This document shows, in pieces, positions 1,990 through 45,259 of a DNA stretch of 64,000 bases. The stretch's first letter is position 1; every line of letters starts with the position of its first letter. This stretch comes from an uncultured virus (IMG/VR IMGVR_UViG_3300028764_000001) (taxonomy: Duplodnaviria; Heunggongvirae; Uroviricota; Caudoviricetes), in IMG/VR virus record IMGVR_UViG_3300028764_000001. The stretch is one strand, 5' to 3'. The notes under the pieces are model-generated. The model made no database searches, was not told the DNA's origin, and saw nothing but the letters and a program-made list of their open reading frames with translations. The position numbers were made by a program, and so were the translations under genes.

Positions 1990-2862
1990 TTGGACATAAG
2001 AGATGTAAAAGAAGAACCACAAGTAGTAGAAGGTGGGATGTATTTAGAAAAGATTTATGAGTTACAAAAGGTATTGGTAGACCACTATGTAAAAATTGAA
2101 GGCCTACCACCTTACCCAATTAGTGTAAACACAAAACCCAGCCAGATAATCCTGAAGGATTTTACGGGTAGGGTAATTGAAGAACTTGCTGAAGGGTTTG
2201 AATCTCACCTATTGATTGATGAATTAACAAGTAACAACCTTTATTGGAGTGATGAGGATGGGAGTTCTAATGATTATCAACAAATGGTAAACCACCTTCA
2301 GAACTTAAATGAAGAACAGGCAGATGCAATGCATTTCATGACTGAGTTAATGATCTATTGCAACATTCAACCAGATGATATCCAAGCTTGGATTGATGCT
2401 TATGTAAAGAAGTACAATTTTAATAGTATAAATGCTGGTGCTCCTTATGTTGGTACCGATGGTGATGTAATAGCTAATGCTATAGAATTAGGCTATGCTA
2501 TATTTGAAGGTGATTTAACTCTTAGTAGGGAAGGTGTTAACTTGGTTAAATACATTGATGAAGTAAAACTTAAGTATCTACCTGGGGCAAGATACCTATC
2601 AATGGAATTGATGGAGTTATCTGAAAAATTGCTTTGGAGAGTTACCTACCATATCAACATTTCAAGGAACTGTTTGAAAAACAAACCCTGGAAACAGTCT
2701 GGTGTTATGACTGATGAAACTCTATACCAATCTAAAGTAGTTGAAGCATTTGTATACATGATGACTTACTTTGGGTTTATTGGTATGGGAAGCAAGGAGA
2801 TATACTACTTGTACTTCAAGAAGAATATGGTTAATCAATTCCGTATTAAATCAAACTATTAA
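1990..2862 (+). CDS. All-alpha dNTP pyrophosphatase (dCTPase/dUTPase, T4 gp56-like)
   Basis: IEELAEGFE, NEEQADAMHF, LKNKPWK and terminal KNMVNQFRIKSNY motifs; TTG start. Confidence 0.75.
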   Translation: MDIRDVKEEPQVVEGGMYLEKIYELQKVLVDHYVKIEGLPPYPISVNTKPSQIILKDFTGRVIEELAEGFESHLLIDELTSNNLYWSDEDGSSNDYQQMVNHLQNLNEEQADAMHFMTELMIYCNIQPDDIQAWIDAYVKKYNFNSINAGAPYVGTDGDVIANAIELGYAIFEGDLTLSREGVNLVKYIDEVKLKYLPGARYLSMELMELSEKLLWRVTYHINISRNCLKNKPWKQSGVMTDETLYQSKVVEAFVYMMTYFGFIGMGSKEIYYLYFKKNMVNQFRIKSNY

Positions 2863-3791
2863 TGGGCAAGGTATCTGGCTCAATCCAAGAAAAATGCCAC
2901 AACTTGGAATTTGCAACCTCCCAGGAAGCTTGGGAAGGTTTAAATGAAATGTTCATATACCATGATAAAAGGTTATTTAAACATGGAGCATCATTTACAT
3001 CGGGTATGTCTGCTGTATATAACATATTCATAAAGATAAGGAAAGCTTGGGTAGACCCAGAATTCGATTATGGTTTAATGTTTAATTACAGGGAACAGAA
3101 ATGGACCACTCTAGTGAATAATTATTTAAACTTAAATAAACTAGACCTACTTAGGTCTAAAGTTCGCTACTTCCAGTCTAAGTATAACCAAAACTATAAT
3201 ATATCTTACTCATTTGATAACTCCCATGATAATGGGAAAGGTTGTTTATTAGCTGCAACATTTTCAAGGAGATTAAATGATGACATCCCAGTTATAACTG
3301 TAATGTTAAGGTCATCAGAGATAACTAAAAGGTTAATATTTGATCTCCTATTAGTACAAAGGATGGCAGAATATGTATATGGTAAAGAAGTAACCTGCAT
3401 GATAAATATATTTGCAACTCAAATGTATTGCAATACAGAAACACTGGTAATGTATAATACTCATAGGCCACTTGCTGATGTACTTGAAGAAAACAAAAAG
3501 AAGTGGATGTCAAAGGGTATAGCAAAAGATTCATGGCCTGAAAGTTTATTAAAAACATTCAATACCTTCATGGATAAACCTGAATCATTTGGGAGTTATA
3601 AGGTTTTCTTAAGAACTGCAAAATGCTTAAGACCTGATTATTACAAGGGGCACTATAAACCTTTAATTGCAGTTAATATGGTTTTAGAATATGATGAGGG
3701 CATTGAATACCCCGAAACCGTCATAAGCTTCTCACAAAGAAAAGCATACAAAAAGAAACATAACAAACAACTTAAAAAACTAGTAGTATGA
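2862..3791 (+). CDS. Thymidylate-synthase-fold protein 1 (divergent, dCMP-type)
   Basis: KGCLL catalytic Cys context; MLRSSEITKRLIFD aligns with RSxD...PFN but has Asp in place of Asn. Confidence 0.65.
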   Translation: MGKVSGSIQEKCHNLEFATSQEAWEGLNEMFIYHDKRLFKHGASFTSGMSAVYNIFIKIRKAWVDPEFDYGLMFNYREQKWTTLVNNYLNLNKLDLLRSKVRYFQSKYNQNYNISYSFDNSHDNGKGCLLAATFSRRLNDDIPVITVMLRSSEITKRLIFDLLLVQRMAEYVYGKEVTCMINIFATQMYCNTETLVMYNTHRPLADVLEENKKKWMSKGIAKDSWPESLLKTFNTFMDKPESFGSYKVFLRTAKCLRPDYYKGHYKPLIAVNMVLEYDEGIEYPETVISFSQRKAYKKKHNKQLKKLVV

Positions 3792-4549
3792 GGATTTACG
3801 CAAACGCTTACGAGTTAATGTCAGAAACTGGCAGAAACTTATGGGAAATGGGTGCAGAGGTTAAACCTAAAACTTATCAAGATAAGGTAATTGAGGGTGA
3901 TGACAACTTTATTACAAAAGAACTTATCTGTGAACAGTATTGTTTAACTGACTTACCAGATGAGGATTTATTATTCTTATTTGACCCACGTTCTAAGGAC
4001 TGGACAAAGGCAGAATTTGTTGAAAGGGTATCAATTGGTAAAAGCCAAAATCCTGGGGAAGCCTATAAACTTAGGCCAGATCTTTGGGAGCAATTCATAA
4101 ACAGTAGAGGGAAGTTCGACTACAACTATAATGACCGGATGAGGTATGAAAAAGCCTTGTTTAGCAGATTAGAGCTGGATAACTTGTCTATAGTAATAAA
4201 GCAACTAATGTTTGACCACCAGACAAGGAAGGCAGTATTACCAATCTACACCCTAGATGATGTATCCAAGATACCAGAGGGCAAAAGGATACCTTGTTCA
4301 ATGTATTATGACTTCTTAGTAAGGGAAGTAAATGGTGAAGAACAATTAAACATAACCTACCACCAAAGGTCTGCAGATTATGTTACCCACTTTGGTAATG
4401 ATGTATTCCTTGCCTGGAAACTAATGCAATATGTTGCTTCACTGATAAAAGTTAAACCAGGGTACCTATACCATACCATAGATTCACTACACAGTTACAA
4501 AAAAGACTGGGTAAAACTTAAAACATCAGTAGGAGACTTCAAAAAATAA
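3788..4549 (+). CDS. Thymidylate-synthase-fold protein 2 (dCMP hydroxymethylase/methylase-like)
   Basis: TRKAVLPIY, RIPCSMYY, QRSADYVTHFGND and HTIDSLHSY motifs. Confidence 0.85.
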   Translation: MRIYANAYELMSETGRNLWEMGAEVKPKTYQDKVIEGDDNFITKELICEQYCLTDLPDEDLLFLFDPRSKDWTKAEFVERVSIGKSQNPGEAYKLRPDLWEQFINSRGKFDYNYNDRMRYEKALFSRLELDNLSIVIKQLMFDHQTRKAVLPIYTLDDVSKIPEGKRIPCSMYYDFLVREVNGEEQLNITYHQRSADYVTHFGNDVFLAWKLMQYVASLIKVKPGYLYHTIDSLHSYKKDWVKLKTSVGDFKK

Positions 4550-4563
4550 TACTACTAACCTGT

Positions 4564-4591
4564 AATGGGAGGACTTAATTGTTCTCCCATT
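4564..4591 (+). other. Intergenic hairpin in front of polA
   Basis: aatgggaggac-ttaatt-gttctcccatt inverted repeat; no strong U-tract. Confidence 0.55.
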
Positions 4592-4606
4592 CGTCACCTT
4601 ATAAAC

Positions 4607-6886
4607 ATGATATCAAGGTACCACATAATAAAGAATTTTAAAGAACTTAAACTACTTGTAAAAGCTTGCAAGGAAACTAAGTATGCAAGCTTTGACTTTG
4701 AATCTAATGCTAAAAGCATATACTCTGATGAGTTCTACCCTACTATACTATCCGTATCATTTCAAGTAGGTTCTTCAGTTATATTACCACTAGCTCATTT
4801 TGATTCACCATTCTTATCAGGTAAAAATAAACCAACCTGGCTTAAGATGTTAGAATACTTTGGTAGACATGTAATTGAGAATCCAGATATAACTAAGGTA
4901 GCATGGAATTGGAAGTTTGATAATCAGATAATGGCAAGGTACAACATCTGGCATAAGGGTAGAGCCTTAGATGGTATGCTTGCAAAATATCTCCTGGATG
5001 AGGAAAGGCCAATGGGTTTAAAAGATATGGTAAAAAGGTATCTACCTGAATTTTCAGGCTATGAAAATTATGAAGGTAGTAAATTGCCATGGGATAAAAA
5101 ACCTTTAGAGGGGTTAAGTAAATATAGTGGACAAGATTCTGACTGTACCTTACGACTTATGCTATTCTTTGAAAAGAAACTCATTGACTTAGGCTTCTAT
5201 AGTTTATATAGAAATTTAATTATGATGGCTAGCAGAGTACTGGAGGATGCTGAAAGAAATGGTATGAAGCTTGATATTGAACTAAATCATGAACTTGGTA
5301 TTAAATATGATGCATTAACAGAAGAGGCCCAAAAGAAACTTAGGGAGATGTCAAGGGTTATGAAGTTTGAAAAGGCTTTAATAAAAGACAGGAGGGAAGC
5401 TTATATATCAAAGATAGAGGATGAAATTGAAGCTATAAATAATGAGATTGAAGAACTTGATGACCAAAAGAAAATCAATGCAGCTAATAAAAAGATTGAT
5501 TCCAGGGAGGAAAAAATAAGCAGGTTAACAGTTGGTGACTTTAGAACTAATGATGAAAAGAAACTTATAGAGCCAATTAACTTTGGTTCACCATTAGTAA
5601 TGGGGGCTTTACTTTACACCCATAAAAAAGGGTTTAAATTCCCCATACAAAACTATACTGATAAAGGTGCACCATCTACAGCTGAAGAGGATATACTAAA
5701 ACTAAAGGATTATGATAAACATGGTTTTATAGATGGGCTTATAGAGTTAAGGGGGTTCCAAACCATTAATTCCACATTTGTAAAAGGTATTGGTGAAAAG
5801 GTTGGATCAGATGGTAGGATTCACCCTAAGTTTAATATACATGGAACAACTACAGGAAGGCTTAGTTCTAACGACCCAAATTTTCAAAATCTCCCAAGGG
5901 TTACAACCAACGAGGATATTAAAAGGATGATGATACCAGGTGAAGGCAAGATATTCATCATGCTCGATTATTCTCAGGCTGAGTTAAGGGTACTTGCTCA
6001 TCTTGCAAAAGAAGAAACCATGCTTATGTGGTTTAGAACTGGTAGGGATATTCACCTTGCTACAGCTTGTAAGAAATACAAAACTGATTATGAGGAAACA
6101 CTTGTAATATATAAGGATGAACAACACCCCGAATATAAAACGTGGAAGAAGAGAAGAAAACAAGCTAAGACAATTAATTTTGGTATAGCTTATGAACAAA
6201 CTGCTATGAAGTTATCTGAGTCACTATCTGAGCCAGGTGCACCAGTTTCAATTGAAGAAGCTCAGGTTGAGTTAGATGCTTGGTTTTTAGAATTTCCAAA
6301 GGTAAAGAAATTTATTGAAAAACAACATAGGTTTGCAGAGAAACATGGTTGGGTTAAAACAATGTTTGGTAGGAAGAGAAGGTTACCCGGAGTATATAGT
6401 GAAGTATATAGAGAATATCTAGAGGCATTAAGATTTGCATCTAATTCACCTATTCAGGGAACTGCTACTGACTTTGCACTATTCTCATCCATATTAATAT
6501 GGGAAAAGATTAAACTAGGTGAGTTACCAAGAATACATGAAAACACAACAGTACATGACTCCATTGTATATGAGGCAGATCCTAAGGATGTAACTCCATT
6601 CTTAATCCATGCACTATGGTCAATATGCAAGAACCCAAGTACTAAACAGTACTTTGGCTTCCAAATTGATGACGTTGAGATGGATGCTGACTTTGGGGTT
6701 GGAAGAAACTATGGTGAAGAATTGCCCTTTGTACCAGGCTATGACTATACTAATCTACTATCAAAAGACTTCAATAAAGATGATTATTACAAGGAATTTA
6801 ATAAAGTACGGGACATCCCTTATTCAGATTTTCCAATTAAGTTCAATGATAACTTTAATAAAAGTAAAGCCCTATATGCAAGATAA
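4607..6886 (+). CDS. polA: DNA polymerase family A with 3'-5' exonuclease
   Basis: ExoI FDFES, ExoII NWKFD, TTTGRLSS...NFQNLP, motif A DYSQAELR, motif B RKQAKTINFGIAY, motif C VHDS. Start moved to ATG 4607, downstream of the hairpin. Confidence 0.97.
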   Translation: MISRYHIIKNFKELKLLVKACKETKYASFDFESNAKSIYSDEFYPTILSVSFQVGSSVILPLAHFDSPFLSGKNKPTWLKMLEYFGRHVIENPDITKVAWNWKFDNQIMARYNIWHKGRALDGMLAKYLLDEERPMGLKDMVKRYLPEFSGYENYEGSKLPWDKKPLEGLSKYSGQDSDCTLRLMLFFEKKLIDLGFYSLYRNLIMMASRVLEDAERNGMKLDIELNHELGIKYDALTEEAQKKLREMSRVMKFEKALIKDRREAYISKIEDEIEAINNEIEELDDQKKINAANKKIDSREEKISRLTVGDFRTNDEKKLIEPINFGSPLVMGALLYTHKKGFKFPIQNYTDKGAPSTAEEDILKLKDYDKHGFIDGLIELRGFQTINSTFVKGIGEKVGSDGRIHPKFNIHGTTTGRLSSNDPNFQNLPRVTTNEDIKRMMIPGEGKIFIMLDYSQAELRVLAHLAKEETMLMWFRTGRDIHLATACKKYKTDYEETLVIYKDEQHPEYKTWKKRRKQAKTINFGIAYEQTAMKLSESLSEPGAPVSIEEAQVELDAWFLEFPKVKKFIEKQHRFAEKHGWVKTMFGRKRRLPGVYSEVYREYLEALRFASNSPIQGTATDFALFSSILIWEKIKLGELPRIHENTTVHDSIVYEADPKDVTPFLIHALWSICKNPSTKQYFGFQIDDVEMDADFGVGRNYGEELPFVPGYDYTNLLSKDFNKDDYYKEFNKVRDIPYSDFPIKFNDNFNKSKALYAR

Positions 6887-7358: not shown

Positions 7359-7769
7359 ATGAATTTAGCAACAATGCTTGGCCAGTCTCTTATTTCAAAA
7401 GATACTGCAATGTTAATCAACAGTGAGTTATACAAAAGGGGTCAGGTAACTGAGAACCGGGTTATAATCATTACACCTAAAGAAATTGAGGGTAGGACTG
7501 CATCTGGTATAATCATACCCGGAGAAGTAACAGAAGGGGTACCAAGAAAGGGTATCTGTGTTCAAATGGGAGAGTTCACTGAAGAGAATCGGACCTATAC
7601 CTCTGTAGTTGGGATTGGTAATGTACTTACCTATGGCTTATATGCTGGTAAGGAAATTGATCTACTAGAACCCCTATTAGTAAAAGGTTTTAACCCTGAC
7701 AAACATGAACTAAGGTGTATATCAGTTAATGAGATTATGTATTCTGAGTATCCAATTAAACTAACATAA
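7359..7769 (+). CDS. groES: GroES-like co-chaperonin
   Basis: NRVII...EGRTASGIIIP...RKGICVQMG mobile-loop signature; YAGKEI. Confidence 0.85.
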   Translation: MNLATMLGQSLISKDTAMLINSELYKRGQVTENRVIIITPKEIEGRTASGIIIPGEVTEGVPRKGICVQMGEFTEENRTYTSVVGIGNVLTYGLYAGKEIDLLEPLLVKGFNPDKHELRCISVNEIMYSEYPIKLT

Positions 7770-9813: not shown

Positions 9814-10702
9814 TTTATTAATAATTGATGGAGAAAATCTATTACACAGGGCATACCATAAGTTCTTAGGCTTCAAGTCTACTGAAGGAGTTCCAACTGG
9901 TGCAATATATGGTTTTCTAAAGATCCTACACTCTAATATATTTAGGTTCAAGCCTGAATATGTTATTGTTACATTTGATAATGGCAGATCAAAACATAGG
10001 ACTAACATACTTCCAGGTTATAAGACACGACCTAAAAAACTGGGTATGGATTATGAGTCATTACAAAAACAAAAAAAGTTGATAATGAAGATCCTTAGAA
10101 GGTTGGGAGTACCTTATGTATTTGATAAATCATTCAGTAATGAATGGGAGGCTGATGATTACATTGCTTACTTAGCTAAAACCTTTGAGGGTGAAGTAAC
10201 TATACTATCCTCTGACAAAGATTTTCACCAACTGATATCTAAAAGGGTAAAGGTAATGAGCCCATCTAAAGACCAATTAATCACTGAAGTTAATTGCATA
10301 AAGTTAACTGGGTATAATCCTGACCAATGTGTTGATTGGTTATCAATGGTGGGGGATGAATCCGATAGCATACCCGGCTATAGAGGCATTGGAGAAGTAA
10401 AAGCTACTGCATTACTTAAGAAATATAACTGTATAGAGAAATTTATAATGGGCGATTACAAAGAAAGTAGGGTAAATAAGCAAACACTTAATGAAGTAAT
10501 GACTAAGAATAGGCACCTTATTGATCTTAACTTCTTTATAAGAAAATACCCAATGGTAAAAAACATACCCATAAAATATGGGAAGGATGAATTTATAAAC
10601 AGGAAGCTAGTAACCATGTTTAATGGGTACTCTCTATCCTCATTCCAGTCTACTGAATTTATAAACACCTTTAAAGAATTAAGCAAATGGAAAGTAAAGT
10701 AA
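9806..10702 (+). CDS. 5'-3' exonuclease / flap endonuclease
   Basis: LIIDGENLLHRAYH, EADDYIA, SSDKDFHQL, GDESDSIPGYRGIGEVKA. Confidence 0.95.
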   Translation: MNSLLIIDGENLLHRAYHKFLGFKSTEGVPTGAIYGFLKILHSNIFRFKPEYVIVTFDNGRSKHRTNILPGYKTRPKKLGMDYESLQKQKKLIMKILRRLGVPYVFDKSFSNEWEADDYIAYLAKTFEGEVTILSSDKDFHQLISKRVKVMSPSKDQLITEVNCIKLTGYNPDQCVDWLSMVGDESDSIPGYRGIGEVKATALLKKYNCIEKFIMGDYKESRVNKQTLNEVMTKNRHLIDLNFFIRKYPMVKNIPIKYGKDEFINRKLVTMFNGYSLSSFQSTEFINTFKELSKWKVK

Positions 10703-11337
10703 AACGTATTATGTTTGTGGGTCCCAGTGGGATAGGCAAGACCCACCTATCCAAGTTTATTGCAGATAAATATGGTATACCATTCATAAGTGGTTCATAC
10801 TCTGATATGGTACCATCAACTAAAGATCAAAGCCATGCTGATATGGTAAGCAAGGATTCAAAGGTAATTTATAATGAAGATTATAAGTTGCTATGGGCAA
10901 GGGCAAAGGTATACTTAGGCTATACTACTAAAGGTTTAAGTTTTGTAACCGACAGGTCATATATTGATAGCATTGCATATTTCATATACAAACTTTCAAA
11001 AGTAATACCCAAGTGTGAAATTGAAGGTTTTGAACATGCAGCAAAAATGCTATTATTCAGGGACTGTACCCACCTAATTGTAATGCAATGTACTGAATCA
11101 ATGGTTGATACCTGGAGAGTTGAAAATAATGAAAAGAGGATATTAAATACATATTTCCAGTGGATGGTATCTATGGTAATGATAGGAGTACTTAAAAGAT
11201 TGGGCTTAAGAACTGGTAAATACTTTGGCCATACATACAGTTACATGCCAATGGGTATAAAAGTACTTGTTTTAAATAACAGGAACATGGAGAATAACAA
11301 AGTACTAATCAGTAAATTCTTGGGCAATGTCAAATAA
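10687..11337 (+). CDS. P-loop kinase, putative dNMP kinase
   Basis: GPSGIGKT Walker A; FVTDRSYIDSIAY matches the TMK/AAA_28-like DRS motif. Confidence 0.75.
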   Translation: MESKVKRIMFVGPSGIGKTHLSKFIADKYGIPFISGSYSDMVPSTKDQSHADMVSKDSKVIYNEDYKLLWARAKVYLGYTTKGLSFVTDRSYIDSIAYFIYKLSKVIPKCEIEGFEHAAKMLLFRDCTHLIVMQCTESMVDTWRVENNEKRILNTYFQWMVSMVMIGVLKRLGLRTGKYFGHTYSYMPMGIKVLVLNNRNMENNKVLISKFLGNVK

Positions 11338-14090: not shown

Positions 14091-14636
14091 ATGGCACGAA
14101 TTAACTCAAAAGCTAAGGGATCAAAAAATGAAAGAGATACCTGTAAGTGGTGGAAAGATTGGACAGGATATGAATTTAGTAGAGTGCCCTCTAGTGGTGG
14201 GCTTAGGTGGTCCCGTACAACGGATACTACGGGAGATATCATCTGTTCAGATAACAAACACTATCTCAGGTTCCCCTTTAGTATTGAGTGCAAAAACTAT
14301 AAGGAAATTAATTTTGAGCATATCCTATTGGGAACAAAGGGAGCAAAAGTCCTCCAATTCTGGAATCAAGCTCTTGAAGATGCGGAGAGGGGGAACAAGC
14401 TTCCTATCCTAATGATGAGGTATAATGGGATGAAAAAGGGAGATTACTTCTTTGTAGTTGATGAACAATTTGGGGGAATACTAATTGATACCATGCCACA
14501 TGAGGATGTAAATGTAATGCTTATAAATGCTAAACATATAAAGCTGATGATTGTAATGGCATCTGATATCATTAAGTATGCTGATTACGCTAAAGTATAT
14601 AAAGAGTCAAGGAAACGATTAAAAGCTAAGAAATGA
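14091..14636 (+). CDS. Holliday junction resolvase (Hjc-like PD-(D/E)XK)
   Basis: NSKAKGSKNER...PSSGG...GDII...SIECK. Confidence 0.85.
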   Translation: MARINSKAKGSKNERDTCKWWKDWTGYEFSRVPSSGGLRWSRTTDTTGDIICSDNKHYLRFPFSIECKNYKEINFEHILLGTKGAKVLQFWNQALEDAERGNKLPILMMRYNGMKKGDYFFVVDEQFGGILIDTMPHEDVNVMLINAKHIKLMIVMASDIIKYADYAKVYKESRKRLKAKK

Positions 14637-15346
14637 AAAAATCATCTAAGTGGTGTATTTTTAACATCAACAACAAACATTGCTTAACCATAGCTAAAGA
14701 ACTTAAGGAAAAAGGGTATGATAAACTAGGGGTAAAGGTAAGCCTACCCACAGTATCAATCCTAAGGAAGAGGCAAAAGGGTAAGGATATTTATGAAGAT
14801 GTCCCACTGCTATTCAACTATGGCTTTGTAAAGATGCCCACTGAGATGGCTTACTCTAGACCACTTTTAAGGAAACTAACTCGTGACATAACTGGGATAG
14901 GCTCATGGGTTAAATCAAATGATACAATGCATGAAAAGAAACTAAGAAGAAGAATTGATGGTGAAGACTTCGATGATTTCTCTAAGGTTGCTATTGCAAG
15001 TAACAATGAAGTAAGGAGATTTAAAAGGATGTCTAGAGAAAATAAGGTATACCAAGCAGATGAAATAATAAACCTAAGTATTGACTCTTACGTAGTACTA
15101 AGGGGCTACCCATTTAATGGTGTTAATGCTACTATAAAAGAAGTCAACCTTGTTACTAAGGAAATAACTGTAATGCTATACCCAGGCAATACTAATATGA
15201 TAGTTAAACTCCCCATGGATAACGTAGTATACTCAATCTATCAAAACTATGATGAGAATAAACTATTCTGCAACAGCACAGAATTAGATACTACAAATAT
15301 CCAGTCTGAAGATATTGAAGATAAACTAACTAAAAGGCAATTCTGA
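14633..15346 (+). CDS. NusG/RfaH/UpxY-family transcription elongation factor
   Basis: NGN domain (KWCIF...VSLPT...PLLFNYGFVKM) plus KOW (YVVLRGYPFNGVNATIKEV). Confidence 0.8.
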   Translation: MKKSSKWCIFNINNKHCLTIAKELKEKGYDKLGVKVSLPTVSILRKRQKGKDIYEDVPLLFNYGFVKMPTEMAYSRPLLRKLTRDITGIGSWVKSNDTMHEKKLRRRIDGEDFDDFSKVAIASNNEVRRFKRMSRENKVYQADEIINLSIDSYVVLRGYPFNGVNATIKEVNLVTKEITVMLYPGNTNMIVKLPMDNVVYSIYQNYDENKLFCNSTELDTTNIQSEDIEDKLTKRQF

Positions 15347-18529: not shown

Positions 18530-18571
18530 AACAACAATAACAATTATTAATTTTTAAAAAACAATTACATC

Positions 18572-19012
18572 ATGGCTAAGAAAGCAAAAGTAAAAGAAGT
18601 AACAGTAGAGTCTACAGAATTTTTAGGCGGTGGCCTTATCAAAATCACCATGTCGGATGGTTCAATCATCTTTGCATTAACAATCACCCAGGAAGTTATC
18701 GACCTAATTGCACCGGAAGCTGATGATGATGATGACGATGATTCGGACGATGATGATGATGATGATGACGATGATTCGGACGATGATGATGATGATGATG
18801 ACGATGATTCGGACGATGATGATGATGACGAAGTCACTGCAGAATCACTTGCCGAAATGGATTATGAAGAACTGGAAGATGTCTGCGATGACAAAGACCT
18901 TGACACTGATCCTGATGACTTCGATGAGGAAGAAGTTGAAAAACTCCGGTCTGCCATCGCAAAAGAACTGGGCATCAAACTTCCCAAGGCTGCCAAAAAA
19001 GGCAAAAAATAA
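18572..19012 (+). CDS. Highly acidic protein with poly-Asp tract
   Basis: Run of about 36 D/S residues, acidic helical C-terminus, basic ends. Confidence 0.8.
   Translation: MAKKAKVKEVTVESTEFLGGGLIKITMSDGSIIFALTITQEVIDLIAPEADDDDDDDSDDDDDDDDDDSDDDDDDDDDDSDDDDDDEVTAESLAEMDYEELEDVCDDKDLDTDPDDFDEEEVEKLRSAIAKELGIKLPKAAKKGKK
18722..18829 (+). repeat. Coding tandem repeat (GAT)n-GAC-GATGAT-TCG-GAC, about 3.5 units
   Basis: gatgatgatgacgatgattcggac occurs three times. Confidence 0.9.
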
Positions 19013-19135
19013 ACCACTAAGGGGGGCTCACAGTACTGGTTATGAACCTTAAGCATAACACTTACTTGACTACCCCCCTTATGTTTTACAACATTTCTTA
19101 AACACAAATATTTAATTTTTACAACAACACTCATT

Positions 19136-29258: not shown

Positions 29259-29289
29259 TTTGATTATTGAATAAAATGTATTATATTTG
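29259..29289 (+). promoter_or_regulatory. Bacteroidetes sigma-A-type promoter
   Basis: TTTG (29259), 19-nt spacer, TATATTTG (29282). Confidence 0.85.
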
Positions 29290-30359: not shown

Positions 30360-30755
30360 ATGAACAATACAGAACTATTAAAACTAGAAGAAGCTCATAA
30401 CCGGGCAAAGAATTACGTAGAGTCATTCCTTAATGGTAGACTTACTATAGAGCAATTCAGGTATCGTATGGTACAGCTAGTAAGGCAATCCACTATTGAT
30501 GCCTTCACTTTAAACGATGGTATACTATTAGTAAACCAATTACTAGATGAGTATATCTCAGACCCAGTAATGTACCGCTACAATATCTGGGATGCATCCC
30601 TTCAAGAACTAAGCATCATAAGCTTATTCAACCCGAATGGTATGATAGAACCAGGGGAAGAAAAAGAGACTCCCAAGAAGGAATCAGTATCTCAACAAAA
30701 ACAAAGGTACCTGGATGAAAAGGAAGGTACAATGACTGGGCCACGTTCTCATTAA
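30360..30755 (+). CDS. Hypothetical protein
   Basis: Operon ORF before a terminator. Confidence 0.65.
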   Translation: MNNTELLKLEEAHNRAKNYVESFLNGRLTIEQFRYRMVQLVRQSTIDAFTLNDGILLVNQLLDEYISDPVMYRYNIWDASLQELSIISLFNPNGMIEPGEEKETPKKESVSQQKQRYLDEKEGTMTGPRSH

Positions 30756-30773
30756 GTAATAAACCCACCAGCT

Positions 30774-30810
30774 AAGGCCTATTCCATTAAGGGGTAGGCC
30801 TTTTTTGTGG
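30774..30810 (+). terminator. Intrinsic terminator with TTTTTTGTG tail
   Basis: aaggcctattcc-attaa-ggggtaggcctt followed by ttttgtgg. Confidence 0.85.
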
Positions 30811-30954
30811 ATTGAAAAAGTGGATGCAACACCCAATGGCCTCACTTACTAGTATTTCCATATTTACAATGCATATATAATCTTAGCTTGTAAGCATAGT
30901 TTTTACTAGGAAGATTGCCTAACCCTTATTAAATTGATAATATTTTGTATTAAT

Positions 30955-32727: not shown

Positions 32728-32758
32728 TTTGTATATTCAATATATTATATTAATTTTG
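32728..32758 (+). promoter_or_regulatory. Bacteroidetes sigma-A-type promoter
   Basis: TTTG (32728), 19-nt spacer, TAATTTTG (32751). Confidence 0.8.
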
Positions 32759-34656: not shown

Positions 34657-34687
34657 TTTGATAATTCAGTATTTATATGTATATTTG
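34657..34687 (+). promoter_or_regulatory. Bacteroidetes sigma-A-type promoter
   Basis: TTTG (34657), 19-nt spacer, TATATTTG (34680). Confidence 0.85.
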
Positions 34688-36535: not shown

Positions 36536-36769
36536 ATGAACATAGGATATAAATACTTAATCTGGGTAACCATCAACATACTAATGATGGTACCCGCCTC
36601 ATACACCATATATAAGTTGATGAATGAAACAAAACAACCTACCTACAAAAGGTACATCGAATGGATTATGGACGATTCTAATAATGGCCTACATGAGACA
36701 TTATACATTGTAGCTGTACTAATCATCCTATGCTTTATCATTGATACCACTATTCTTCTCCCACTCTAA
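36536..36769 (+). CDS. Small membrane protein (2 TM)
   Basis: Two hydrophobic segments. Confidence 0.6.
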   Translation: MNIGYKYLIWVTINILMMVPASYTIYKLMNETKQPTYKRYIEWIMDDSNNGLHETLYIVAVLIILCFIIDTTILLPL

Positions 36770-36790
36770 AACAAAGAAATAATCTAAATT

Positions 36791-36961
36791 ATGATACAAC
36801 CAATAAGCCAATACCAATGGTATAATAACTTAACCAAGGCTGATTCTTATTTCATTTCTAATTACTTATCTAAGTATTACAGTACACTATATGGGGTACA
36901 TCTAACTATGGCTAATGTCATGTACATAGGTTACAGTATGTATCATAAATCTATACATTAA
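36791..36961 (+). CDS. Small hypothetical protein (56 aa, absent from ORF track)
   Basis: MIQPISQYQWYNNLTKADSYF...; last gene before a terminator. Confidence 0.5.
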   Translation: MIQPISQYQWYNNLTKADSYFISNYLSKYYSTLYGVHLTMANVMYIGYSMYHKSIH

Positions 36962-37022
36962 AGGTACATCAAACCAAGGTACATTATACAACATTCTTAT
37001 ACATTAATCTAATAAGCTAATC

Positions 37023-37062
37023 AAAGGTCTTCATGGATATCTGTCCGTGGGGATTTTTTGTG
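37023..37062 (+). terminator. Intrinsic terminator with TTTTTTGTG tail
   Basis: aaaggtcttcatggata-tc-tgtccgtggggatttt followed by ttgtg. Confidence 0.75.
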
Positions 37063-37140
37063 ATCGAAATCTGAGGACTCTGTCACAGCCTTCCAGCCAT
37101 AGTCTACTATAGCTCTACAGCGATAAAGCCAATCCTCTTA

Positions 37141-37420
37141 AGGTACCTTAAATGAGGCCTCAAAAAGGCCTTTTCAGAGCTTTTTACTAGGGTAAAGCTA
37201 AGGGTAAAAAGGCAGAGGATTGGTGAGGATTAAGGTACATTTAAGGCCCATAGGATTCGATGTTTTAAGGCCCAAATGTCACCAGCTATGGCCCCTTAGG
37301 ATGTAGGCTTAGGCCATAAATTAATAAGGGAATAAGGCCTTTATTAGCCCCATTAGGAAGTAAATTTATTCACCATGGATGGCCCCAAAGGTAAAAGGTA
37401 TTAAGGAAATATGGCCTATA
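37141..37420. repeat. Non-coding GGCC array 1 (9 sites)
   Basis: GGCC at 37156, 37167, 37245, 37269, 37290, 37312, 37336, 37381, 37413. Confidence 0.85.
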
Positions 37421-37530
37421 TACCTACCCATTCCAAGTAAAAGCTTTAATTGCAAAGGTATATTATCTTAGCCAGTTAACTTACATTTTACTAGGAATCA
37501 TACCTAATCCTTAAATAATGATATAAAAAG

Positions 37531-37561
37531 ATTGTATATACAATATATTATATTATCTTTG
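37531..37561 (+). promoter_or_regulatory. Bacteroidetes sigma-A-type promoter
   Basis: TTG...TATCTTTG at 37554-37561. Confidence 0.8.
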
Positions 37562-37606
37562 TGTATTCAATTATTATATACAACAATTTTAAAAATGACT
37601 AAACTT

Positions 37607-38858: not shown

Positions 38859-38941
38859 GGCCTTTATATGCTCCGTAGATGGCCCTAATGTTATTTTGTA
38901 TTTAGAGGCAAGGCCTACATCTCAGGCTTACCTTTAGGGCC
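38859..38941. repeat. Non-coding GGCC array 2 (4 sites)
   Basis: GGCC at 38859, 38881, 38912, 38938. Confidence 0.7.
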
Positions 38942-38950
38942 CTAATTAAA

Positions 38951-38982
38951 TTTGTATATATGAAATAAAATGATTATATTTG
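38951..38982 (+). promoter_or_regulatory. Bacteroidetes sigma-A-type promoter
   Basis: TTTG (38951), 20-nt spacer, TATATTTG (38975). Confidence 0.85.
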
Positions 38983-39027
38983 TAGACTATAATAATATAG
39001 TAACAACAATTTTAAAAATGACTAATT

Positions 39028-39529: not shown

Positions 39530-39790
39530 GTGTTAGGCCTTCAGCATCTGGCCTTATAGAACTCAGGATGAGGGGCCTTATTGAATCCATTGATGGCCTT
39601 TTTCTAAAAGCCACCGGCTACGAGGGCCCAGCGGTAAAGATTAGGCCCTATTGGGATTTAAAGCTTTCTCCATCTATGGCCCTGCCCAGGCATAAGGAGC
39701 ATGGGATTTAGGGGATAAAGTATAGGCCTTAGATGGATAGAGATAAGGTACCTAAACCTTTCAAAGCCAGGAGCTAAGGCATCGTAACCA
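39530..39790. repeat. Non-coding GGCC array 3 (8 sites)
   Basis: GGCC at 39536, 39550, 39574, 39595, 39625, 39644, 39678, 39725. Confidence 0.85.
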
Positions 39791-40015
39791 CAACGCATTT
39801 CCCAATATGCATGTAATAAAAATATGTCATTTTTTAATGTCATTTTGTTGTATTCTTTTAACTATTACATTAATGTTTTTTAACTGTCAAAATAATTTAT
39901 ATTTAAAAAAATAAACTACTTTTGAAATGTCAAACGGACAAAGATTTTTCTTTTTTACTTTGTACTGATTACAAAAACGCTCTTTGAATTTTTTTATTTA
40001 TTTTTTATCAAAAAA

Positions 40016-40046
40016 ATATCTATTAAAAAGAAAAACTATATATTTG
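40016..40046 (+). promoter_or_regulatory. Bacteroidetes sigma-A-type promoter
   Basis: TATATTTG at 40039-40046. Confidence 0.7.
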
Positions 40047-40082
40047 ATTTTTTATAAAACAACAATCTAAATTTAAAAAAAA

Positions 40083-40598
40083 ATGACTACATTAAGCAGT
40101 GACTCAAAAAACGTTATTAATGCAAATAACGAAATTTCAAAAGCAATTGAAACAAGTTTAAAAAAATCTACTAATAAAGTAGAGAAAAAAGAAGTTGTAA
40201 AAAAAGATTTGAAAAAAGAAGCTACAACAACAAAAGCAAATGAGTATTTGCTTTCTATGCTAGATAAAAGTTTATTTGTTTCTAATTCGGGAATGAGTAA
40301 AGAAAATATTTATAAAGCTTCTATTTTTGCAACATGCATTACTGACAGAGATAAAAAAACAATCCGTAGAAAAATACGCAATAATATGGATAGTTTTATT
40401 AGTTCTTTTATTTCGTATGAAACAAATAAAAATACTGATAAAATTAAAAAACTATTGACTGCATTTAAAGACTTTTACACAAATGTATATTCTTTAAATG
40501 ATTATTCATTAAATAGTTTAATTAGTGCGAACACTGATACTGTAAAAAAGGATAATGTTATTAAAATGCTTTCAATTATCAAAAAGTATGACAAATAG
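40083..40598 (+). CDS. Basic early protein, paralog of 32069..32575
   Basis: LDKSLF...ENIY...RRKIRNNMDSFISSFI...VYSLNDY...KMLSIIK. Confidence 0.85.
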   Translation: MTTLSSDSKNVINANNEISKAIETSLKKSTNKVEKKEVVKKDLKKEATTTKANEYLLSMLDKSLFVSNSGMSKENIYKASIFATCITDRDKKTIRRKIRNNMDSFISSFISYETNKNTDKIKKLLTAFKDFYTNVYSLNDYSLNSLISANTDTVKKDNVIKMLSIIKKYDK

Positions 40599-40610
40599 TT
40601 TTATCATTCA

Positions 40611-40651
40611 AATAACAACATACATAGTGTATGTTGTTATTATTTCTTTTT
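40611..40651 (+). terminator. Intrinsic terminator built without GG/CC
   Basis: aataacaacatac-atagt-gtatgttgttatt followed by atttcttttt. Confidence 0.75.
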
Positions 40652-40694
40652 ATCTAATTAATTTAGTAGTTAAGCATTTTAATAATAAAAAAGC

Positions 40695-40952
40695 ATGAAT
40701 ATAAATAATGATATTAATTTAGAACAACATTCAATATATAAAGATTTTGTTAAACAATATAATATTACATTGCTATCTTTTTATATTGATTTGAATTGTA
40801 GTGTAATGTTATTTAGTTATGATAATTTAGATATAAAATATCAATTGAATAAAGATTTATTCATACATGAAATATCTATTTATTTTGATTGTTTAGATAT
40901 TGAATTGATAAATATTTGTAGTGATAAATTCTTATTATCAATTGAATTTTAA
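40695..40952 (+). CDS. Hypothetical protein lacking Gly, Pro and Trp
   Basis: 85-aa ORF with no GG or CC dinucleotide. Confidence 0.6.
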   Translation: MNINNDINLEQHSIYKDFVKQYNITLLSFYIDLNCSVMLFSYDNLDIKYQLNKDLFIHEISIYFDCLDIELINICSDKFLLSIEF

Positions 40953-40972
40953 ATTATTATTAAATCAATTTT

Positions 40973-41030
40973 AAAGTACATTTAAAGGACTATTATTAAT
41001 GTCCCCTATAAATGTACTTTAATTTTTTTT
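40973..41030 (+). terminator. Intrinsic terminator-like hairpin
   Basis: aaagtacattta...taaatgtacttt followed by aatttttttt. Confidence 0.7.
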
Positions 41031-41201
41031 ATATGCAAACACCGTCCCCCTATTCCACACAGAGATCCCACACTGCCTCGTATAAGGTTCGAACCCATTA
41101 GGTGATACCCTCCCAATGATTACCTTCCCACTATCCTACCAAGCCCACTTCCCATAAAAAATATCCAGCACTTTTCATCCCTCGTATAAGCTCTCTTACC
41201 T

Positions 41202-41299: not shown

Positions 41300-41545
41300 T
41301 CAAATTATGCGGGGTTTCCTAAACCCTTTGGATATTAATATAGTCAATATCATTCCCACCAATATAACCTCTAGCAAAGGAGAGAATACCCAAATAGTAA
41401 TCAAGGATAACATACTCAATGTATCTTGCTTTATCCCCTTTCTCCTTACTCCCCCATCCATAAAGAAAAGAAAAGTAACAAATACCAACCCTATAATATA
41501 GCCTAACCATAGGCATATCATACCAAACGTATATAGAGCTCCCAT
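41300..41545 (-). CDS. Small membrane protein (2 TM)
   Basis: Two hydrophobic helices; start overlaps the upstream stop. Confidence 0.6.
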   Translation of the reverse strand: MGALYTFGMICLWLGYIIGLVFVTFLFFMDGGVRRKGIKQDTLSMLSLITIWVFSPLLEVILVGMILTILISKGFRKPRII

Positions 41546-42087: not shown

Positions 42088-42181
42088 AAGAATAAGTTTA
42101 TTAATTAGTAATACAATTTAATTATAAGACAAAGAAAATTACTAGAACACTATTTAGATTATGCAGGATTTACCCTTTTAT

Positions 42182-42649
42182 TCAATCTGGCATATCTATT
42201 TTTCTATAATGGGTAACCAATGAATCTGATATACCCCACCTTTCCGGCCCCCAAGTAAGGAATACCATACAATTAGAGGTTTTAGTTACAAGGTACCTCC
42301 CATAATCATCAGGGTAATGGCCCTTTAACTGAGGTTCATATTCTATCCAATCAGTTTCATGTCTGATTGGGATAGAATAAGCCTCACATTTCTTGTAGTG
42401 GATAGCTTTAGCCATCCCTTGGTTAACTATTAGGTCTAAATCCTTTACCATACCCAAGATTAAGTCATATTGACTCTTCTCATGGAAGTATAAAGGGCCA
42501 TATTTTATAAGAAAGGCCTTATAAGCAGAGGTCAAAGAGAATTTAGGGTCCCTTTTAATGGATTTGTCCACTACTAATACAACTCTTTCTAAGACTGATA
42601 AATGATTATCAGACATTAGGATGGTAGTTATAGCATCTGTTTTATTCAT
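42182..42649 (-). CDS. Hypothetical protein with C-terminal DUF551-like segment
   Basis: DWI...PDDYGRYLVT...VTHYRKIDMP. Confidence 0.6.
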   Translation of the reverse strand: MNKTDAITTILMSDNHLSVLERVVLVVDKSIKRDPKFSLTSAYKAFLIKYGPLYFHEKSQYDLILGMVKDLDLIVNQGMAKAIHYKKCEAYSIPIRHETDWIEYEPQLKGHYPDDYGRYLVTKTSNCMVFLTWGPERWGISDSLVTHYRKIDMPD

Positions 42650-42980
42650 TACCCTTAATCTCTTTAGCCCACTCTTCTAGCCATTGAACTACATTAGTAT
42701 CCTCAGGTGTATCAAATTTAAAACTAAATGTAATAGTTTCAGGATTTTCTAGGCTTAATTCCTTAACTTTAGCTAAATACCAAGCCTCTTTATCCAAATC
42801 CTGCTGAATAAGGCTAAGACTTAAACCTTTTAAGCCAATTCTCATCCTGTATTTAAATGCATTCATTATACAGAAGTCAATGGTACTCTTGTAACCCCAG
42901 ATATTTAACATCATATCAATTACTTCTACTGGGTACTGGTTATAGTGAGATGGGTGATTTACTTGTTCTTCTTTACTCAT
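42642..42980 (-). CDS. DUF3310 protein (T7 gp1.7-like nucleotide kinase family)
   Basis: EQVNHPSHY...EVID...NAFKYRMRIGLK...QDLDKEAWYL. Confidence 0.85.
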   Translation of the reverse strand: MSKEEQVNHPSHYNQYPVEVIDMMLNIWGYKSTIDFCIMNAFKYRMRIGLKGLSLSLIQQDLDKEAWYLAKVKELSLENPETITFSFKFDTPEDTNVVQWLEEWAKEIKGNE

Positions 42981-42982
42981 AA

Positions 42983-43666
42983 TTAAAATGTTGTATCATA
43001 GGTTATATCATCAAATACAATAGGTACCAGTTTCTGGAACTGTCTTAATAATGGGCACATGAGTTCCCTCATCTGTGGATGAGCTACCTTTTGAGCACGT
43101 TGTTTGAAAATAGTTCTCCATTCCCTTAGGTTAGCAGTAATCACTATCTCAGTTTTCAGTGCATTAGGTAATACTGATCTAGCTTCCTGAGCAACCCAAC
43201 CTTCTTTTAATAAATCCAGGTAAACCTGTTCACTGTTAGACATTGAGTGATACCATAATTTGGTAACCCTATCAATCTTCATGTAGTTGTGTTCATTGAG
43301 GATTTTAACTAAGTCAAGTTGTTCATCACTAAGCCAGAATGGCTGGATGAATGTAAGCTCATTACCAAACTTTTCCTTTGCATAATTACAGTACCTTGTA
43401 CTTTCCTGGGAAAATGACGCAATTCGATGACGTACTAATTCATGGGAGATACCCCGGTCACATACAAATAAAACTGAAATTGACTGATGTTCTAGTACTG
43501 ATTCATGGCCAAGTTGTATTAACTTAGCAATAAACTTCTCAGCACTTTCATCAGTAATAAGTTCTTCACTCTTGTAACAGGTTCTTCCTGCACGTTCAAT
43601 GCTCTGTATAATTGTCTTGCCATTAATATCTGACAAGATCTGGGTAGATGGTTTAATTAATTTCAT
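42983..43666 (-). CDS. thyX: Flavin-dependent thymidylate synthase
   Basis: GHESVLEH, RGISHELVRHRIASFSQESTRY, ARSVLP, NLREWR, AHPQMR. Confidence 0.97.
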   Translation of the reverse strand: MKLIKPSTQILSDINGKTIIQSIERAGRTCYKSEELITDESAEKFIAKLIQLGHESVLEHQSISVLFVCDRGISHELVRHRIASFSQESTRYCNYAKEKFGNELTFIQPFWLSDEQLDLVKILNEHNYMKIDRVTKLWYHSMSNSEQVYLDLLKEGWVAQEARSVLPNALKTEIVITANLREWRTIFKQRAQKVAHPQMRELMCPLLRQFQKLVPIVFDDITYDTTF

Positions 43667-43667
43667 G

Positions 43668-44102
43668 TTATGTTATTATTATGTTAAACTTCTTGGATAA
43701 TTTCTTTAGCTTCTTGTAGATTGTCACTGTATCTTCTCTGGCAAGAGAATCAATACCAGTTGATATTGCATTCAACAGTGTTTTCATACTCTGTTTTGCA
43801 ATGCGGTATTGATATTCTTTCTCTACTTCATCACTCCATAATTTATATGTAGCATTAACATTGGTTACACCCAAACGGGTTAATACTCCATTAGAGTGAA
43901 TTATGGCTGATAATTTAACTTGGTTACCAAGCAAGGCTACCTTAGTTTCTCGGTTAACCTCTTTTACAAAAGACTTATCAACTGTATATTGAGTAACGCA
44001 TAATATTTCATCTCCAATACGAAGTAATACTTCCGGAGCTTTTACAAAAGGAATTTTTGGTGTATCCCGTACAACCATAGAGTTTTTCTTCTTCTTTGCC
44101 AT
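43668..44102 (-). CDS. Hypothetical protein
   Basis: 144-aa ORF heading the minus-strand block. Confidence 0.7.
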   Translation of the reverse strand: MAKKKKNSMVVRDTPKIPFVKAPEVLLRIGDEILCVTQYTVDKSFVKEVNRETKVALLGNQVKLSAIIHSNGVLTRLGVTNVNATYKLWSDEVEKEYQYRIAKQSMKTLLNAISTGIDSLAREDTVTIYKKLKKLSKKFNIIIT

Positions 44103-44215
44103 GTTCTAGTTAGTTTATTAATTATATATAACAATATGATCAGGGTAGTACCAACTAGAAAACTATTTGCAATACCACTATGGCCATATATATAATAATA
44201 ACTAACTCATTCTAT

Positions 44216-45259
44216 ATGAATAAACTTAGAGTACTTGGAGTATGCCAAGGGCAAGGTGCGTTACTCTTCCCACTTAGAAAGCACCTAATTGGTAATGTAG
44301 AACCAAGGGGATGTTTCCATACACCAAATGAAGAACAATGGAGGATAAACTTCGGGGATATACCATTTGTACGCAAGATTGATCAACTAAATCTACCCAA
44401 ATATGTTGATATTATAATAGGTTCACCTAACTGTGGTACTAGCAGTATACTATCCTACTCTCGTAAGAAGACCCTGGGCAAACCAAAAGAGGATGAAAGC
44501 ATCAATACCTTCATTACTATAACCCAGCAATTACAACCTAAGGTATTCCTTATGGAAAATCTACCAAAGCTTTTAGACTTCATAACACAAGGAGAATGGG
44601 AAACTCTATTCCTGGATTATGACTTAATCTTCCATACATCTTCAGTAATGGAGTATGGCAATTCCCAAAAGAGTAGGGTAAGGCTTACATTAATAGGTGT
44701 TCGAAAAGGCTTGTCTAGTTTTAAATTAGAAGCATTCCAAAGAGTTTTCAAAGTACGTGATGTTAAGTTTACTAGAGAGCTTCTAGAAGACACTAGGTTA
44801 TTACCTAAATTCTTTCCAATGAATGGAAACATACGGGAATTAAGTTCTCATAAAGTTTGTATGTATGATTATCGAGATGGCCTTAAAACTAAACTGGGCC
44901 TCAAAGAGATAAAGAAATTATGGGTAGGCGATTTTAAGGAGTGTTATAAATGGCCAATCAATTCTGCTAAGATGAAAACCCTACCTGGTGTTTATCGTAA
45001 TAAACCAGATGGGTACCCTATGACTGCTAGAAAACAAGATAGGCAGTTTAAACCAAACGGTGAGATCATGAGCCCAGCTGAATTAGCTGTAATCCAGGGT
45101 TATCCATTGAAGTATAAAATATACTGCATTGATACTGATACTAAGGAAAGGAACTATTGGATTAATAAAGGTAGGGTATCAATCACTAAGGGTCCCTCCT
45201 ATGAAATAGGGTTATGGTTTAAAAAATGTCTACGGAAATCCCTCCTCGCGGGCGTCTAA
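44216..45259 (+). CDS. Divergent DNA cytosine-C5 methyltransferase-fold protein
   Basis: Motif I variant VLGVCQGQGA, IV IIIGSPNCG, VI FLMENLP, VIII QKSRVRLTLIG, IX ELAVIQGYP; motif X is atypical. Start ATG 44216. Confidence 0.8.
   Translation: MNKLRVLGVCQGQGALLFPLRKHLIGNVEPRGCFHTPNEEQWRINFGDIPFVRKIDQLNLPKYVDIIIGSPNCGTSSILSYSRKKTLGKPKEDESINTFITITQQLQPKVFLMENLPKLLDFITQGEWETLFLDYDLIFHTSSVMEYGNSQKSRVRLTLIGVRKGLSSFKLEAFQRVFKVRDVKFTRELLEDTRLLPKFFPMNGNIRELSSHKVCMYDYRDGLKTKLGLKEIKKLWVGDFKECYKWPINSAKMKTLPGVYRNKPDGYPMTARKQDRQFKPNGEIMSPAELAVIQGYPLKYKIYCIDTDTKERNYWINKGRVSITKGPSYEIGLWFKKCLRKSLLAGV

Follow-up and report, generated by a model that had tools for sequence, protein, structure and literature searches.

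The 64,000-nucleotide stretch analysed here (hereafter the window), IMG/VR record IMGVR_UViG_3300028764_000001 from an uncultured virus of the Caudoviricetes, encodes three adjacent genes just upstream of a family A DNA polymerase (PolA): a nucleoside triphosphate (NTP) pyrophosphatase and two proteins of the thymidylate synthase (TS) fold, here called TS-A and TS-B. Judging from gene content and conserved residues, we lean towards reading these genes as a conserved pre-replicative cytosine-nucleotide cassette beside PolA, with a C5-methyltransferase (MTase) gene, GGCC arrays and an RCC/GGY-free island elsewhere in the window being separate things. The original prediction for this DNA had joined all of these in a single sequence-specific system. 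Its nucleotide-level cytosine route (pyrophosphatase, Asp-type TS-fold enzymes, kinase-like P-loop protein and PolA) is retained here, and the single system is not. The genes on which it drew are all present, namely the pyrophosphatase, the two TS-fold genes, PolA, the P-loop protein, a ThyX and the C5-MTase-fold gene, as recognised by Pfam or PHROG and, for TS-A, by an AlphaFold2 (AF2) model.

The trio of pyrophosphatase, TS-A and TS-B is a core of this phage family. Among 80 related loci, to which all cassette counts refer, it was found in 79-80, and PolA follows in 77. Relatives called complete below number 13 and are at least 90% complete; the island and the arrays were compared in four complete relatives. 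The cassette and the associated P-loop gene are as follows.

1990-2862, + strand: all-alpha NTP pyrophosphatase of the MazG / dimeric dUTPase-dCTPase type (Pfam dUTPase_2, E 1.9e-7; PHROG 12184 and 173, NTP pyrophosphohydrolase)
2862-3791, + strand: TS-A, a divergent TS-fold protein (AF2 model with a predicted local distance difference test score of 84.9; present in 80/80 related loci)
3788-4549, + strand: TS-B, a TS homologue (Pfam PF00303 Thymidylat_synt, E 1e-16, above the cut-off)
4565-6886, + strand: PolA with 3'-5' exonuclease (Pfam DNA_pol_A, E 1.2e-73; exo1, E 9e-18)
10687-11337, + strand: P-loop protein, possible nucleotide kinase (Pfam AAA_28, E 1.4e-7; PHROG thymidylate kinase, E 1.2e-4)

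TS-B is clearly a member of the TS family, its profile being matched by 105 TS-family sequences in the PDB, and its best matches there are AfhB (8e-12) and MilA (2e-8), with ThyA at 6e-7 or weaker. It does not qualify as a canonical ThyA, given a best NCBIfam score of 47 bits against the 174.55-bit cut-off of the ThyA equivalog. R167-x-P169-C170, Q193-R194-S195-x-D197 and D205 are invariant in 14 of 14 orthologues, and so are C170 (C146 in ThyA), R194 (R166) and the H235/Y237 pair within I231-D232-S233-L234-H235-S236-Y237; the catalytic segment aligns with the PCH and QRSAD segments of solved TS. D205 occupies the position of N177 in Escherichia coli ThyA, lies 11 residues past the conserved Arg, as in ThyA, and coincides in the alignment with the Asp that AfhB and MilA have there. 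The available text of PMC13326640 links Asp177 to a cytosine substrate, an acidic residue at the L143 position to a hydroxymethyl or hydroxyl product, and D169N to 5-hydroxy-deoxycytidine monophosphate (5-hydroxy-dCMP), and that of PMC8670742 describes Asp-177 TS homologues as specifying dCMP and as associated with cytosine-modified contigs. That both TS-fold genes carry the dCMP-type Asp, as originally predicted, is borne out by D205 in TS-B and D161 in TS-A, each 11 residues after a conserved Arg.

The product of TS-B is harder to read. The D169N mark of 5-hydroxy-dCMP synthases is absent, since TS-B keeps D197 in 14/14 orthologues where AfhB has Asn. The acidic L143-position residue of hydroxymethylases is absent as well; TS-B has R167 there, three residues before the catalytic Cys (Arg in 14/14), and the Arg recurs in gp46 of the actinophage Muddy. 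The L143 rule does not seem to be strict, because the ThyA of PaMx74, a 5-methylcytosine (5mC) phage according to the available text of bioRxiv 10.1101/2024.12.05.627091, has Asn at this position. Since the invariant Arg fits no published rule, TS-B may make either a 5-methyl or a 5-hydroxymethyl product.

TS-A had no sequence match in Pfam, NCBIfam or the PDB, and none of its 721 homologues found carries a name; the family comprises 223 clusters among 1.84 billion representatives. Its fold was recognised from the model. VIA comparison gave Z scores of 13.0 to AfhB of HY126 (a dCMP hydroxylase, 9iqu), 11.8 to MilA and about 10 to ThyA, the best 50 matches listed being TS-superfamily chains only (Z 9.3-13.0), and the top Foldseek matches were MilA, T4 dCH and AfhB. 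All 97 of the full-length cluster representatives retain C128, R150, D161 and Y88. The spacing from R to D is 11 residues, the same as in ThyA, and the position of ThyA D169 holds Glu or Asp in 95/97, with no D169N; the register behind these assignments comes from motif spacing and a weak hhalign segment (E 0.062), not from a residue-level structural alignment. By eye, the alignment also indicates that TS-A is without the Arg-Arg pair and the conserved His/Tyr of the nucleotide site.

Conservation of Cys128, Arg150, Asp161 and Tyr88 in every representative argues that TS-A is an enzyme and not a relic, and a pseudoenzyme was ruled out on the Cys, Arg and Asp alone. We infer that TS-A, alongside TS-B, is a TS-fold enzyme with an intact catalytic centre that acts on a cytosine nucleotide. 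Another candidate role, that of a zinc-independent deaminase replacing a PF00383 gene, is weakened by Muddy, where a gp47-type protein coexists with a PF00383 deaminase. Complex prediction for a TS-A and TS-B heterodimer scored 0.25 against a mark of 0.32, which speaks neither for nor against such a complex.

The pyrophosphatase, found in 79 of the 80 loci, keeps its EExxE (E64/E65/E68/E71) and EExxD (E108/E109/D112) motifs unchanged throughout the 13 orthologues aligned. It is thus an all-alpha NTP pyrophosphatase with acidic metal-binding motifs of the kind expected of a T4 gp56-type enzyme; we take gp56 itself to belong to the dUTPase_2 family. The P-loop gene was seen in 57 of 80 loci, a count that is limited by flank length.

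Cassettes of the same build occur in other phages. The trio recurs in Clostridium perfringens phages; Clostridium phage A2 has the same gene order, a middle gene that matches TS-A with an hhalign probability of 97% (E 4.8e-11), and PolA following. In Muddy the order is kinase, dUTPase-like gene, gp47, TS gp46, PF00383 deaminase gp45 and PolA, with a helicase at the position equivalent to that in the window. The match between Muddy gp47 and TS-A is weak (probability 18.5%, E 0.0013). A gp47-type protein is present in 85 cultured actinophage records, and an annotated thymidylate synthase lies under or beside the gp47-type match in 23 of 30 among the matches listed. Muddy gp45 (L084 1732-2274), annotated as hypothetical, belongs to the dCMP/cytidine deaminase family (E 3.9e-20) and sits between the TS homologue and PolA. 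A PF00383 deaminase was found in PaMx74, Muddy and Clostridium phage A2, in none of the 13 complete relatives and not in the nearest record.

The available text of bioRxiv 10.1101/2024.12.05.627091 states that a neighbourhood of TS, deaminase, pyrophosphohydrolase and PolA marks modified contigs, that PaMx74-like phages replace cytosine with 5mC, and that in 5mC phages a deaminase makes thymidine triphosphate (dTTP) from 5-methyl-deoxycytidine triphosphate (5mdCTP). By its genes, the cassette looks to be a member of the known pre-replicative cytosine-replacement class (MetaGPA work) with the addition of the undescribed TS-A. A literature search returned nothing specific on this phage family or on paired TS genes. 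In the scheme that we favour, the NTP pyrophosphatase would hydrolyse dCTP to dCMP, and TS-B, through Cys170 and Asp205, would add a one-carbon group at C5 to give 5-methyl- or 5-hydroxymethyl-dCMP. The phage P-loop kinase, together with host kinases, would rebuild the triphosphate, and PolA would incorporate the modified nucleotide at every cytosine, whatever the sequence context.

The remaining elements that had been attributed to one system lie at some distance from the cassette. The relevant genes near the packaging operon are listed here.

42983-43666, - strand: ThyX, flavin-dependent thymidylate synthase (Pfam Thy1, E 5.4e-47)
44180-45259, + strand, likely start 44216: divergent C5-cytosine MTase-fold gene, first of the packaging operon (Pfam PF00145, E 3.1e-15)
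46077..47579, + strand: large terminase, TerL (Pfam Terminase_6N, E 6.5e-6; PHROG 2, E 1.2e-32)

The MTase was found in 19 of 22 records, the three misses being fragments, and in 13/13 complete relatives; the order MTase, open reading frame (ORF) at 45376 and TerL is kept in 4/4 relatives. Clostridium phage A2 and Muddy, which bear the trio too, do not have it. Motifs I-IV, VI, VIII and IX of this enzyme class are conserved in the MTase, with the stretches GSP[S/N]CG, ENLP, QxSRxR, VLGxCxxQG, NxEPR and FGxIP. The Pro-Cys dipeptide is replaced by Ser/Asn-Cys in 8 of 8 aligned sequences, and C73 is invariant in 27/27. Among solved proteins only M.HhaI and M.HaeIII were matched, in the catalytic domain alone (E ~1e-4). 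Most simply, this would be a core late gene whose product methylates a fixed DNA motif. A role as the sequence-specific second step of the cassette finds no backing in its absence from A2 and Muddy, no link to RCC was seen, and no Pfam match to TET/JBP, a glycosyltransferase, a CmoA-like protein, a deaminase or another tailoring enzyme was obtained among the 104 ORFs of the whole ~80-kb genome (89 in the window and 15 in the remaining 16 kb).

ThyX, which had also been counted as part of the system, is accessory, being present in 1 of 13 complete relatives. In relative G003 (L097-L100, 29803-30671) a ThyX and a DUF3310 gene lie between TS-A and TS-B, and in the window the same two genes lie 39 kb from the cassette on the opposite strand; the pair looks accessory and mobile.

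In each of the five genomes, no 4-mer is as strongly under-represented as GATC. The window holds 114 copies against 188 expected from a Markov model; of the relatives G013 and G015 (L105-L113), one holds 2 copies over 77 kb and the other 25 over 85 kb, where base composition predicts ~206 and ~284. This shortage suggests strong pressure from a GATC-specific host nuclease. The proposed test of virion DNA for KpnI resistance would not discriminate, because KpnI still cuts the 5mC DNA of Xp12, according to the available text of PMC7653180.

The island, in which no RCC/GGY site occurs, exists as described, and its sequence is unusual beyond what dinucleotide composition predicts.

39787-41041, + strand: low-GC island (~20% GC) with ORFs 40083-40598 and 40695-40952; no RCC/GGY over 1254 bp

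Dinucleotide-preserving shuffles of the island contained 7.0 RCC/GGY on average and reached zero in 0 of 5000 cases, and RCC took first place among 148 comparable motifs of the window, as a motif picked post hoc in an island with only 6 CC and 6 GG dinucleotides. Homologues of its 171-amino-acid ORF were found in 4/4 complete relatives (tblastn, E 1e-10 to 2e-20), each at the longest RCC/GGY-free gap of that genome (277-451 bp). The original prediction had asked whether relatives with the gene set carry an RCC-free island: the low-GC gene is indeed conserved in all four, with under 26% GC around it in three, but RCC/GGY sites occur inside their islands (for example 9 in G005 1700-2380). For 13-33 of 148 other motifs, too, the longest gap in these relatives falls in the island. 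Because RCC/GGY ranks only 15-56 of 148 there, it is low GC that is conserved and not RCC avoidance, and the island is best read as a conserved AT-rich early gene cassette. A strain-specific foreign insertion was considered and rejected: a close-match scan had yielded only two IMG/VR contigs, at 100% identity, and homologues then emerged in 4/4 relatives. The island protein matched only unnamed viral clusters in an Atlas search (best score 0.84) and Pfam DUF5106 below the cut-off (E 0.0026). Four TGTCA-containing words lie within A/T tracts of the non-coding leader at 39800-40080 (by eye); they could be binding sites or an unwinding element.

Non-coding GGCC-dense arrays are likewise present, and the GGTAC enrichment that had been claimed alongside them is weaker.

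30739-30842, no strand assigned: GGCC array 1, 4 sites, two of them in a terminator-like hairpin, ~110 bp upstream of AT-rich repeat D1
37156-37417, no strand assigned: GGCC array 2, 9 sites, consensus T-W-W-GGCC-Y, followed by repeats D2, D3 and D5 at 37459-37594
38859-38942, no strand assigned: GGCC array 3, 4 sites, followed at 38949-38993 by repeat D1, which holds TTTG...TAnnTTTG
39536-39729, no strand assigned: GGCC array 4, 8 sites, RNA fold z-score -1.51, not significant
36589-37240, no strand assigned: stretch enriched in GGTAC / AGGTACA, with 9 of the window's 147 GGTAC/GTACC positions in ~650 bp and 4 of its 13 AGGTACA, partly overlapping small ORFs

These four clusters hold 25 of the 106 GGCC in the window, a total that equals expectation (105.5, Markov), and share the consensus T-W-W-GGCC-Y with spacings mostly of 19-34 bp (range 11-78). 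Downstream of each of the four comes an AT-rich repeat family, found repeatedly ahead of early ORFs, and three of the arrays are preceded by inverted repeats with T-runs (by eye; one scored). AAGGCC arrays are present in G005 and a 4-site cluster in G003, with none in G013 and G015. Structured RNA was tried as an explanation and rejected, the z-scores of -0.97 and -1.51 being no better than those of shuffles, and no Rfam family or tRNA was found in the window. The WGGCCY arrays are probably protein-binding sites upstream of promoter-like repeats, to judge by their arrangement. With arrays in two of four relatives, GGCC at expectation across the window and the RCC ranks given above, the proposed map of tuned RCC density is not supported.

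The AT-rich direct-repeat families stand before early ORFs at 30952, 32013, 32710, 34654, 37513 and 38949. TTTG...TAnnTTTG occurs at 29259-29289, 32728-32758, 34657-34687 and 38951-38982 and resembles the Bacteroidetes promoter consensus; promoter-like repeats of this kind hint at a Bacteroidota host. The pattern TTTG-N17-23-TAnnTTTG is not enriched in the window (5 against 5.19 expected), 4 of the 5 being on the + strand, and a sigma-70 scan gave fewer matches than in shuffles.

Several observations weigh against a cassette that replaces cytosine. The gene that had been called dCTPase-like stands as an all-alpha NTP pyrophosphatase by its Pfam and PHROG matches and its invariant motifs; its dCTP preference is a proposal, and searches by sequence gave no solved relative and no NCBIfam match. 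The match of the P-loop protein to solved proteins is confined to the P-loop, which leaves a kinase role putative. The Arg of TS-B at the L143 position fits neither the acidic (hydroxymethyl or hydroxyl) nor the hydrophobic (methyl) class. With a substituent on every C5, a core C5-MTase would be left with nothing to methylate. Two relatives that carry this gene set are almost devoid of GATC, and their DNA would therefore be vulnerable at a C-containing site; this argues against a bulky global hypermodification and fits a small modification or none. Finally, our literature search found no report of modified DNA in Muddy-type phages.

Some of these points would be met if the genes instead reshaped the nucleotide pool, for example from dCTP through dCMP and 5-methyl-dCMP to thymidylate or by some other salvage route, with virion cytosine canonical and the C5-MTase the sole DNA modifier. 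The MTase would then have the unsubstituted cytosine that it needs, and DNA would be unprotected, as GATC avoidance implies. Conversion of 5mdCTP to dTTP by the deaminase of 5mC phages (in the available text of bioRxiv 10.1101/2024.12.05.627091), the Muddy deaminase directly after the TS-B homologue and the lack of ThyX in 12 of 13 complete relatives point the same way. However, no complete relative has a PF00383 deaminase, so that the thymidylate route would lack a known last step; the window phage carries its own ThyX; and the association of Asp-177 TS homologues with modified-DNA contigs (available text of PMC8670742) favours modification. We regard pool reshaping as unlikely. Quite unlikely, in our judgement, is that TS-A and TS-B, acting in sequence or in parallel, make an undescribed base or two different bases that replace cytosine globally. 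The invariant Arg of TS-B, which obeys no product rule, would suit such a pathway, as would the strictly conserved Cys, Arg and Asp of TS-A in a family that has neither model nor name, its cytosine-specific nearest solved structures (AfhB and MilA), and the strictness with which Bacteroidota-type and Clostridium phages keep the two genes paired and in one order, an order also seen in actinophages, where the gp47 match is weak. The missing Arg-Arg pair and His/Tyr of the TS-A nucleotide site (by eye) speak against it, and GATC avoidance argues against a bulky group.

Two further schemes would bring the MTase back into the pathway. It is distinctly improbable that TS-A and TS-B make an undescribed C5-modified deoxycytidine and that the strictly conserved Ser/Asn-Cys MTase-fold protein, encoded at the start of the packaging operon, acts on that base, or on residual cytosine, in a fixed motif shortly before packaging. 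To the original model, in which 5-hydroxymethylcytosine is made at the nucleotide level, the MTase-fold enzyme performs non-methyl chemistry in an RCC-like context and RCC density is tuned, we give very little credence. All the genes that it names exist, the MTase is core (13/13) with an unusual S/N-C in place of P-C, the island is free of RCC/GGY beyond dinucleotide expectation (0/5000; rank 1/148 in the window), and 4/4 relatives share the island gene with its low GC. Nevertheless, the motif was picked post hoc and ranks 15-56/148 in relatives whose islands contain the sites, GGCC arrays occur in half of these relatives with window-wide GGCC at expectation, the MTase is missing from the trio-bearing A2 and Muddy and matches M.HhaI and M.HaeIII in the catalytic domain alone, and TS-B is without the acidic residue of hydroxymethylases. 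A cytosine-nucleotide cassette beside PolA, with the MTase, arrays and island as separate things, is the reading that we keep.

Most known phage DNA hypermodifications start from pre-replicative replacement of pyrimidines by TS homologues, and a second, strictly conserved TS-fold enzyme paired with an Asp-type TS homologue points to a missing reaction in this class of pathway. The pairing extends over an abundant phage family, C. perfringens phages and probably 85 cultured actinophage records, among them the therapeutic phage Muddy with its relatives. Modified DNA, if that is what these phages carry, would have consequences for sequencing, restriction and CRISPR escape, and phage engineering. 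The motif map that had suggested a new system fails to replicate in relatives. Of interest beside TS-A is the puzzle of a core C5-methyltransferase in a phage apparently built to replace cytosine.

The window covers ~80% of a ~80-kb myophage genome, and the other 16 kb, which encode tail, baseplate and DnaB-like proteins, were taken from a record that is 99.98-100% identical over two compared stretches. All large ORFs of 1-41 kb and 44-64 kb are on the + strand. Genes for replication and recombination of T4-like kind (helicase, PolA, gp32-like, RecA/UvsX-like, FEN and Mre11/Rad50) come first; after them come many small ORFs, a short block on the minus strand, and then terminase, capsid and tail-tube genes. 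Relatives of TS-B are encoded by 436 IMG/VR stretches, and among named records the closest are 'Phage DP' contigs from human faeces, which carry no annotation. Public runs with the 1990-6886 stretch (24 among the matches listed) are all labelled peat metagenome, and no RNA run is among those listed. Cumulative GC skew is lowest near 44-47 kb of the window. A coding repeat rich in CGATGA/GATGAC at 18551-19051 specifies an acidic Asp/Glu-rich protein, and similar acidic repeats occur in 4/4 relatives. Genes at 7359-7769, 14633-15346 and 56890-57711 encode a Cpn10/GroES-like, a NusG-like and a BspA-type leucine-rich-repeat protein, the last among the tail genes. Two further genes precede the cassette.

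1-1029, + strand: helicase, C-terminal part, upstream of the cassette (Pfam Helicase_C, E 2.4e-10; 78/80 related loci)
1472-1978, + strand: HNH endonuclease (PHROG 59, E 2.5e-25; only 50/80 loci)

The HNH endonuclease gene is probably a mobile insertion beside the cassette. Many relatives have variable insertions of 0.2-2 kb between cassette genes, and in related records the PolA matches are broken into 2-3 pieces. All three features likely reflect homing elements.

Compared with known systems, the window phage shares a C5-MTase-fold enzyme, and with it potential sequence-specific cytosine marks, with phages that combine a C5-MTase with TET (5mYOX) or use carboxymethyl transfer by CmoX (available texts of PMC8256090 and PMC12783734). 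It differs from them in that the Pfam scan found no TET/JBP, glycosyltransferase or CmoA-like gene. The likeness to T4, with its gp56 dCTPase, gp42 dCMP hydroxymethylase and gp1 dNMP kinase, lies in an all-alpha NTP pyrophosphatase, a TS-fold enzyme with the Cys and Asp177, a small P-loop kinase-like gene and a polymerase of its own. Unlike T4, TS-B has Arg and not Asp/Glu at the L143 position, there is a second TS-fold enzyme, no glucosyltransferase was detected by the same scan, and the cassette has no BLAST-level similarity to the T4 genes.

The 5-hydroxy-dCMP synthases RB69 gp48, DLP3 gp80 and HY126 AfhB, all with Asp177, are the nearest solved relatives of both TS-A and TS-B, which differ from them in missing the D169N substitution. 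Relative to PaMx74, the family has TS-A, to which nothing in PaMx74 is comparable, and no PF00383 deaminase (0/13), and the two pyrophosphatases are unrelated at profile level (E 0.46). The likeness to the Xp12/PaMx74 class is nonetheless considerable: a pyrophosphatase followed by a TS homologue lies close to replication genes, the PaMx74 record has the order pyrophosphohydrolase, ThyA and deaminase, and its ThyA matches TS-B with a probability of 91% and the same RSxD...D pattern. Muddy shares with that class a deaminase placed directly after its TS-B homologue.

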